This document shows positions 63,645 through 64,000 of a stretch of 64,000 nt of DNA, piece after piece. The stretch is from NCBI RefSeq assembly GCF_030384885.1, contig NZ_CP128613.1. One strand, written 5' to 3'. Both the position numbers and the translations under genes were made by a program. The notes under the pieces are model-generated. The model did not search any database and was not told the origin of the DNA. It saw nothing but the letters and a program-made list of their open reading frames with translations. How positions within the stretch are numbered: the stretch's first letter is position 1; every line of letters begins with the position of its first letter. This DNA comes from Escherichia coli (lineage in GTDB: Bacteria; Pseudomonadota; Gammaproteobacteria; Enterobacterales; Enterobacteriaceae).

Positions 63645-64000
63645 TTAGTTGTAGTTGATTTTAACGATCAGGTCTTTCTGGAACGGACCATAGACCAGAG
63701 AGTCACCTGGTTTTTGGCTTAATTCGGCATGATAATTGCGGGTTGCTATTGCTGCACTTTGTCCGGGAATATAAGCGCTAAAAAATTTGAATTGGTTAAA
63801 TTCAATATCTTCTTGCGTTTTTTGATCGGTAATTCGCATGAGCAACCCGTTACCCATTTCCAGATGCGTGTTATCATATAATGTATCCGAAGTAAAGAAA
63901 TTGGTGGCAATGTCAAATTTTTCAGTACAATTGGCTGCCACATCTCTTATAGTAGAAACGCTGAATGCCGCTTTAGGTGCGAATGTTGAAATGGAATTCA
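63645..64000 (-). CDS. Hypothetical protein, C-terminal part (ORF stays open to the window edge), AT-rich
   Basis: Minus-strand frame ending ...YGPFQKDLIVKINYN* has no stop between 63942 and 63998 (hand-checked); no match to a protein I recognise. Confidence 0.5.
   Translation of the reverse strand, partial: NSISTFAPKAAFSVSTIRDVAANCTEKFDIATNFFTSDTLYDNTHLEMGNGLLMRITDQKTQEDIEFNQFKFFSAYIPGQSAAIATRNYHAELSQKPGDSLVYGPFQKDLIVKINYN

Follow-up and report, generated by a model that had tools for sequence, protein, structure and literature searches.

Positions 63645-64000 of the window (the whole 64,000-nucleotide stretch of Escherichia coli contig NZ_CP128613.1 analysed here) hold the end of a minus-strand open reading frame (ORF) that begins outside it. 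With a probability that we put at about 0.93, this is the 3' end of the tip-adhesin gene, a YqiI orthologue of 351 residues, of the chaperone-usher fimbriae known as Yqi or ExPEC (extraintestinal pathogenic E. coli) adhesin I. The window contains codons 234-351 of this yqiI-type gene and its TAA stop codon. The finding is already known, in that the fimbriae to which the gene belongs have been described and in part characterised; it was called unrecognised in the first-pass annotation of the sequence, and it proves to belong to a published operon (PMC2771359, PMC3559732, PMC8545135).

The reading frame and the predicted tip adhesin

The stop codon is at 63645-63647, and the translation of 63645-64000 ends in ...YGPFQKDLIVKINYN (equally ...SLVYGPFQKDLIVKINYN or ...GDSLVYGPFQKDLIVKINYN) before it. 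From the stop, the frame is free of further stops over 118 codons, up to the window edge; simple arithmetic from the base frequencies gives a probability of about 4e-4 for a run of this length arising by chance at this base composition. The GC content is 0.39 in this part of the ORF, against 0.52 both in ribB and in the whole window. The description originally given, of an ORF running off the window on the minus strand and AT-rich relative to ribB (39% against 52% GC), is therefore correct.

It had also been proposed to extend the sequence past the window. A megablast search of complete E. coli genomes gave one 100% match to the window end, in NZ_CP027579.1 of strain 2013C-4282, which is a completely sequenced, stx1-positive genome of cryptic clade I (PMC10100065). 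Over the final 14,441 bases (window 49560-64000) there is a single mismatch to it, and because of this NZ_CP027579.1 was taken as the continuation of the window. The corresponding locus in that genome is referred to below as L001, window coordinates being L001 + 49559. The frame continues there uninterrupted, and the full adhesin gene of 1056 nt and 351 residues occupies L001 14086-15141 on the minus strand, which would be window positions 63645-64700. Comparison with the orthologous adhesin of strain CFT073 gives a ratio of non-synonymous to synonymous substitution rates (dN/dS) of 0.14 in this frame, which confirms it as the coding frame; a dN/dS of 0.12, at a dS of 0.72, implies purifying selection on a functional gene.

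The adhesin has two domains, an N-terminal receptor-binding domain from residue 22 to about residue 213 and a C-terminal pilin domain comprising residues 214-351. They are preceded by a putative signal peptide, the hydrophobic N-terminus MITLFRLLAILCLFFNVSAFA being followed by VD, with AFA directly before V22; the crystallised construct 9rwu begins at the equivalent of V22. In a PDB sequence search, residues 22-215 match 9rwu and 9rwv ('Pilus assembly protein', 210 residues) with an E-value of 1.7e-108, and three related stand-alone domains (9rx0, 9rww and 9rwe) match the N-terminal half at 1e-20 to 1e-32. Comparison by eye indicates that the 9rwu sequence is the allele of CFT073 and Nissle over the aligned stretch; a literature search found no paper describing the 9rwu series of structures.

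AlphaFold, run with 47 homologues, generates a model of the adhesin with a mean confidence (predicted local distance difference test, pLDDT) of 89.3 and a predicted template-modelling score (pTM) of 0.81, in which the protein is all-β and has two domains. The top Foldseek matches to this model are the two-domain tip adhesins FimH, CupB6, LpfD, PapG and FocH. The C-terminal half resembles the pilin domain of PapGII (template-modelling score 0.71, root mean square deviation 3.8) and also the rod or adaptor subunits PapA, FimF and FimG, and the window therefore holds most of the pilin domain. Structure prediction thus supports the predicted domain, with its incomplete immunoglobulin-like (Ig-like) fold (PF00419), for which the sequence profile is a borderline case; the Pfam Fimbrial family is matched by 20 of the 47 family members with a best E-value of 3.4e-09. 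The alignment with 9rwu/9rwv and the Foldseek matches both place a receptor-binding domain at the N-terminus, where a donor-strand extension would otherwise be found.

The hallmarks of a pilus subunit are a penultimate tyrosine, a glycine 14 residues from the end, and a last β-strand of alternating hydrophobic residues. The C-terminus of the adhesin fits this motif, with G338, Y350 and a final strand at residues 345-350 (IVKINY) that has the alternating pattern and is a strand in the AlphaFold model; G338, F340 and Y350 are invariant across the 47 homologues. The part of the gene inside the window encodes this strand and all three invariant residues. The first-pass annotation had seen in the C-terminus a possible β-strand of a secreted or fimbrial-type protein, and in the model it is indeed the last strand of the pilin domain.

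By analogy with the established chaperone-usher pathway, the adhesin would be exported by the Sec system, after which a strand donated by the chaperone would fill the groove beside the last strand of the pilin domain, the stretch encoded in the window, and so complete the domain's incomplete Ig fold. The complex of chaperone and adhesin would be the first to enter and open the usher. Donor-strand exchange would follow, in which the first major subunit puts its N-terminal extension in place of the chaperone strand, and this would leave the adhesin at the tip of the fibre, with its N-terminal domain placed to bind host glycans.

The adhesin gene is labelled 'hypothetical protein' by RefSeq in NZ_CP027579.1, and 'pilus protein', 'pilus assembly protein' or 'fimbrial adhesin' in other genomes.

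The Yqi operon and related systems

In NZ_CP027579.1 the gene is part of an intact four-gene chaperone-usher operon, which lies between ribB and yqiD-zupT and is convergent to ribB. The genes are co-oriented and contiguous and encode, in order, a major subunit of 187 residues, an usher of 840, a PapD-like chaperone of 246/249 and the adhesin of 351; the adhesin gene comes last, and its start overlaps the chaperone stop by 4 nt. The other three products are identified by Pfam, the usher by Usher (3.7e-165), PapC_N and PapC_C, the chaperone by PapD_N (1.1e-35) and PapD_C (1.5e-08), and the major subunit by Fimbrial (8.4e-24). The major subunit also passes the NCBIfam equivalog PRK09733, with 343 bits against a cut-off of 189.

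The Yqi operon of CFT073 (C_RS18015-18030) and of Nissle 1917 also lies between ribB and yqiD-zupT, and its four genes and their order are identical. Amino acid identities to the CFT073 proteins are 99.5% for the major subunit, 94.9% for the usher, 96.3% for the chaperone and 84.6% for the adhesin. The two adhesins (351 and 349 residues) differ by 52 amino acids, and the differences are dense at residues 26-41, where 10 of 14 aligned positions are changed and there is a two-residue insertion.

Yqi fimbriae, which reportedly also appeared as 'Ygi' fimbriae in the work of Spurbeck et al. in 2011, are known from the avian pathogenic E. coli (APEC) strain IMT5155, from UTI89 and from CFT073 (the c3791 cluster). 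In CFT073, C_RS18015 (c3791) has been named 'Yqi fimbrial subunit' (PMC5956150). The ExPEC adhesin I (EA/I) cluster was described in IMT5155, where a mutant colonised less and the cloned cluster gave short fimbriae (Antão et al., PMC2771359). When expressed and tested on glycan arrays, the CFT073 cluster bound structures with terminal β-N-acetylglucosamine, Lewis A, a blood group B glycan and α-Gal-Lewis X (PMC8545135). The orthologues of both strains make fimbriae and contribute to adhesion (PMC8545135, PMC2771359). Strain 2013C-4282, by contrast, is a cryptic clade I, stx1-positive isolate and not ExPEC.

Several points weigh against the assignment. No NCBIfam model matches the adhesin, and the Pfam Fimbrial profile scores 22.8 bits on its residues 225-351, under the gathering cut-off of 25.6 bits; it is because of these two results that the nature of the adhesin was settled by the PDB sequence search and by structure prediction. 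The receptor-binding domain differs from the characterised one of CFT073 at 30 of 190 aligned positions and by the two-residue insertion. The 581-bp region upstream of the operon has a GC content of 28%, and many chaperone-usher operons are silenced by H-NS in culture. Finally, the operon is known here from its sequence, so its expression stays predicted. This last point could also be taken to mean that the operon is cryptic or in decay and has ceased to make fimbriae, and the related K-12 operons are indeed cryptic, with yqiG broken by the insertion sequence IS2. We consider such a remnant unlikely, since all four ORFs are intact and equal in length to those of E. fergusonii, the adhesin gene has a dN/dS of 0.12 at a dS of 0.72, and the orthologues mentioned above are functional.

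The K-12 operon ygiL-yqiG-yqiH-yqiI ('Yqi-like') is a paralogue of the operon described here. It is found between glgS and ubiK, with ribB-ubiK separating its site from that of Yqi. Its four genes are arranged alike, its adhesin too has two domains and about the same length, and the C-terminal ending ...GPFSKDVILKITYN is conserved; its usher gene yqiG is interrupted, while the usher gene here is intact. It could thus be asked whether the adhesin at the window end is simply the K-12-type YqiI, moved to the other side of ribB-ubiK, given the identical gene order and orientation, the clear homology, and protein lengths of 187/183, 249/249 and 351/354 residues. However, identity to the K-12 proteins is 59% for the major subunit, 49% for the chaperone and 35% for the adhesin, compared to 85-99.5% to the Yqi proteins of CFT073 at the identical locus, and the K-12 site is represented here by a 34-nt gap. 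Moreover, Wurpel et al. found Yqi (in B2) and Yqi-like (in A, B1, D and E) to be closely related but distinct and mutually exclusive types at different positions (PMC3559732). A relocated K-12 operon is therefore hardly credible, and we retain the assignment to Yqi.

Among more distant systems, those of FimH, PapG, LpfD and CupB6 have the same predicted combination of receptor-binding domain and incomplete-Ig pilin domain, a PapD-like chaperone and a PapC/FimD-like usher. Their adhesins have only 9-14% sequence identity to the one described here, whose receptor-binding domain is of a different family (the 9rwu group), and the present operon differs from all of them in having no separate adaptor subunits. 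The best NCBIfam matches are to Salmonella Std, Ste and Stf, with 709 bits for the usher (StdB) and 191 bits for the chaperone (StdC). These scores are far under the equivalog cut-offs of 1289 and 370, respectively, implying that the Salmonella operons are related but not the same. S. enterica subsp. salamae has an adhesin with 58% identity, whose gene is located elsewhere, between ubiA and plsB.

Distribution, origin and alleles

In K-12, ribB is followed after about 260 bp by yqiD and then by the convergent zupT, with no fimbrial genes between them. The first-pass annotation had expected zupT after ribB, as in K-12, and apart from the tiny yqiD this is essentially right; it had also considered that the ORF might turn out to be a core gene present at this position, and K-12 has no such ORF there. 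When the two regions are aligned by BLAST, the match to K-12 is lost within a few bases of the ribB stop codon and picked up again upstream of yqiD, leaving about 5.5 kb without a counterpart in K-12. The suggestion that the window end might mark the edge of another strain-specific insertion is thus half right: the segment is absent from K-12, but it is not specific to the strain. A query with the whole operon, counted as present at a coverage of at least 80%, is positive for 992 of the 5426 complete E. coli genomes, and E. fergusonii, E. albertii and [Enterobacter] lignolyticus have the operon at this same position. A megablast search with the 441 nt at the window end returned 118 genomes only, which is an undercount and not a prevalence figure, because megablast needs an exact 28-mer.

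A recently acquired genomic island would fit some of these data. The segment is AT-rich (43% against 52% GC), it is missing at this site in K-12, and the allele occurs at 99% identity or more in only one of the 5426 genomes. In addition, identity to E. fergusonii reaches 99% over parts of the usher gene and at the 3' end of the adhesin gene, a level above that of the neighbouring core genes, which suggests allele exchange by recombination. Against this, the site is the same in all the genomes and species listed above, the exact adhesin protein is recorded from 511 contigs, annotation of the segment revealed no integrase, transposase or tRNA, and a search for flanking direct repeats at its borders found only short, chance-level matches. 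We therefore regard a recent island as very improbable. From the shared site in other species and in the 992 E. coli genomes, and from the lack of mobility genes and flanking repeats, it is more likely that this is an old locus that has been lost in K-12-like lineages than that it is a recent insertion.

The alleles have been further analysed. The adhesin is 95% identical in amino acid sequence to that of E. fergusonii and 85% identical to those of CFT073 and sequence type 70 (ST70), and the nucleotide identities of the usher gene follow the same pattern, at 97% against 90%. The pilin domain differs from that of E. fergusonii by a single residue. The adhesin allele is therefore one of a deep lineage shared with E. 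fergusonii, and not of the B2 lineage. The 95% identity to E. fergusonii is not in itself evidence of recent transfer, as wider flanks show that 95% is ordinary for the species pair; the core genes hldE, yqiK and ribB are 95.6%, 90.7% and 94.6% identical, respectively.

A sliding comparison over stretches of 300 nt nevertheless reveals a mosaic, in which some segments are at least 99% identical to E. fergusonii and others are closest to CFT073. The tracts of at least 99% include stretches of the usher gene and the adhesin gene's 3' end, the part inside the window among them. They exceed the neighbouring core genes, and the grouping is incongruent with respect to B2, which together hint at recombination. 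We would tentatively suggest, while thinking it rather doubtful, that the allele of clade I and E. fergusonii, with its altered N-terminal loop (residues 26-41) and 30 further substitutions in the receptor-binding domain, differs in host glycan specificity from that of B2 (CFT073), and that homologous recombination has carried it between E. fergusonii and clade I of E. coli.

In a comparison of E. fergusonii (L007, CP055696.1) with L001, the genes immediately around ribB and the operon (yqiJ, glgS, zupT, ygiD and the 3' end of ubiK) are only 53-80% identical in nucleotide sequence. Identity is 91-97% for ribB and the operon themselves and for yqiK and hldE, so that the immediate flanks are unusually diverged in E. 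fergusonii.

Neighbouring sites and implications

The conserved core gene ribB (62938-63591, plus strand) borders the fimbrial segment. In the 53-nt gap between it and the convergent adhesin gene is a GC-rich hairpin, GCCGGGATATTCCCGGC, at 63618-63634. On the plus strand it has an A-run before it and a T-run after it, and it scores as terminator-like; the predicted folding energy is -16.6 kcal/mol on the plus strand (z -2.7) and -20 kcal/mol on the minus strand (z -5.3). The hairpin is likely to be the ribB terminator, and possibly serves both ribB and the adhesin gene.

Upstream of the major-subunit gene, and beyond the window, an imperfect 21-nt inverted repeat (76% complementary) brackets 289 nt within the AT-rich region (L001 19200-19530, which would be 68759-69089). 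It is superficially like an invertible promoter switch. There is no recombinase gene nearby, and the repeat is probably a product of chance in AT-rich DNA. The yqiD homologue adjoining zupT (L001 19648-19797) is annotated with 49 residues and has an ORF of 54, compared to 56 in K-12, CFT073 and Nissle.

On the far side of ribB, the gap of 34 nt between glgS and ubiK (62231-62264) is the empty site at which K-12 has ygiL-yqiG-yqiH-yqiI. Similarity to K-12 ubiK is lost about 70 nt ahead of the stop codon of that gene (window 62231-62333), and the C-terminus of UbiK consequently differs between the two configurations, the protein being annotated with 99 residues here and 96 in K-12. Further away, an ISEc41 element (IS200/IS605 family) is located between ygiM and ygiF (window 51261-52931, L001 1702-3372) and carries, according to RefSeq, tnpA and a gene for an InsQ/TnpB RNA-guided endonuclease. 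Two type I toxin genes of the Ibs family lie between hldE and yqiK (window 58768-59204, L001 9209-9645), as they do in K-12, and there are three in E. fergusonii and E. albertii.

For the gene itself, the significance of these results goes little beyond correct annotation: a 'hypothetical protein' is identified as the orthologue of a characterised adhesin with a solved receptor-binding domain. They also show that a Shiga-toxin-positive strain of cryptic clade I has an intact Yqi operon, although these fimbriae are mostly treated as a marker of extraintestinal (B2) E. coli. The alleles of the adhesin fall into two or more deep lineages, and these could differ in host or tissue tropism.
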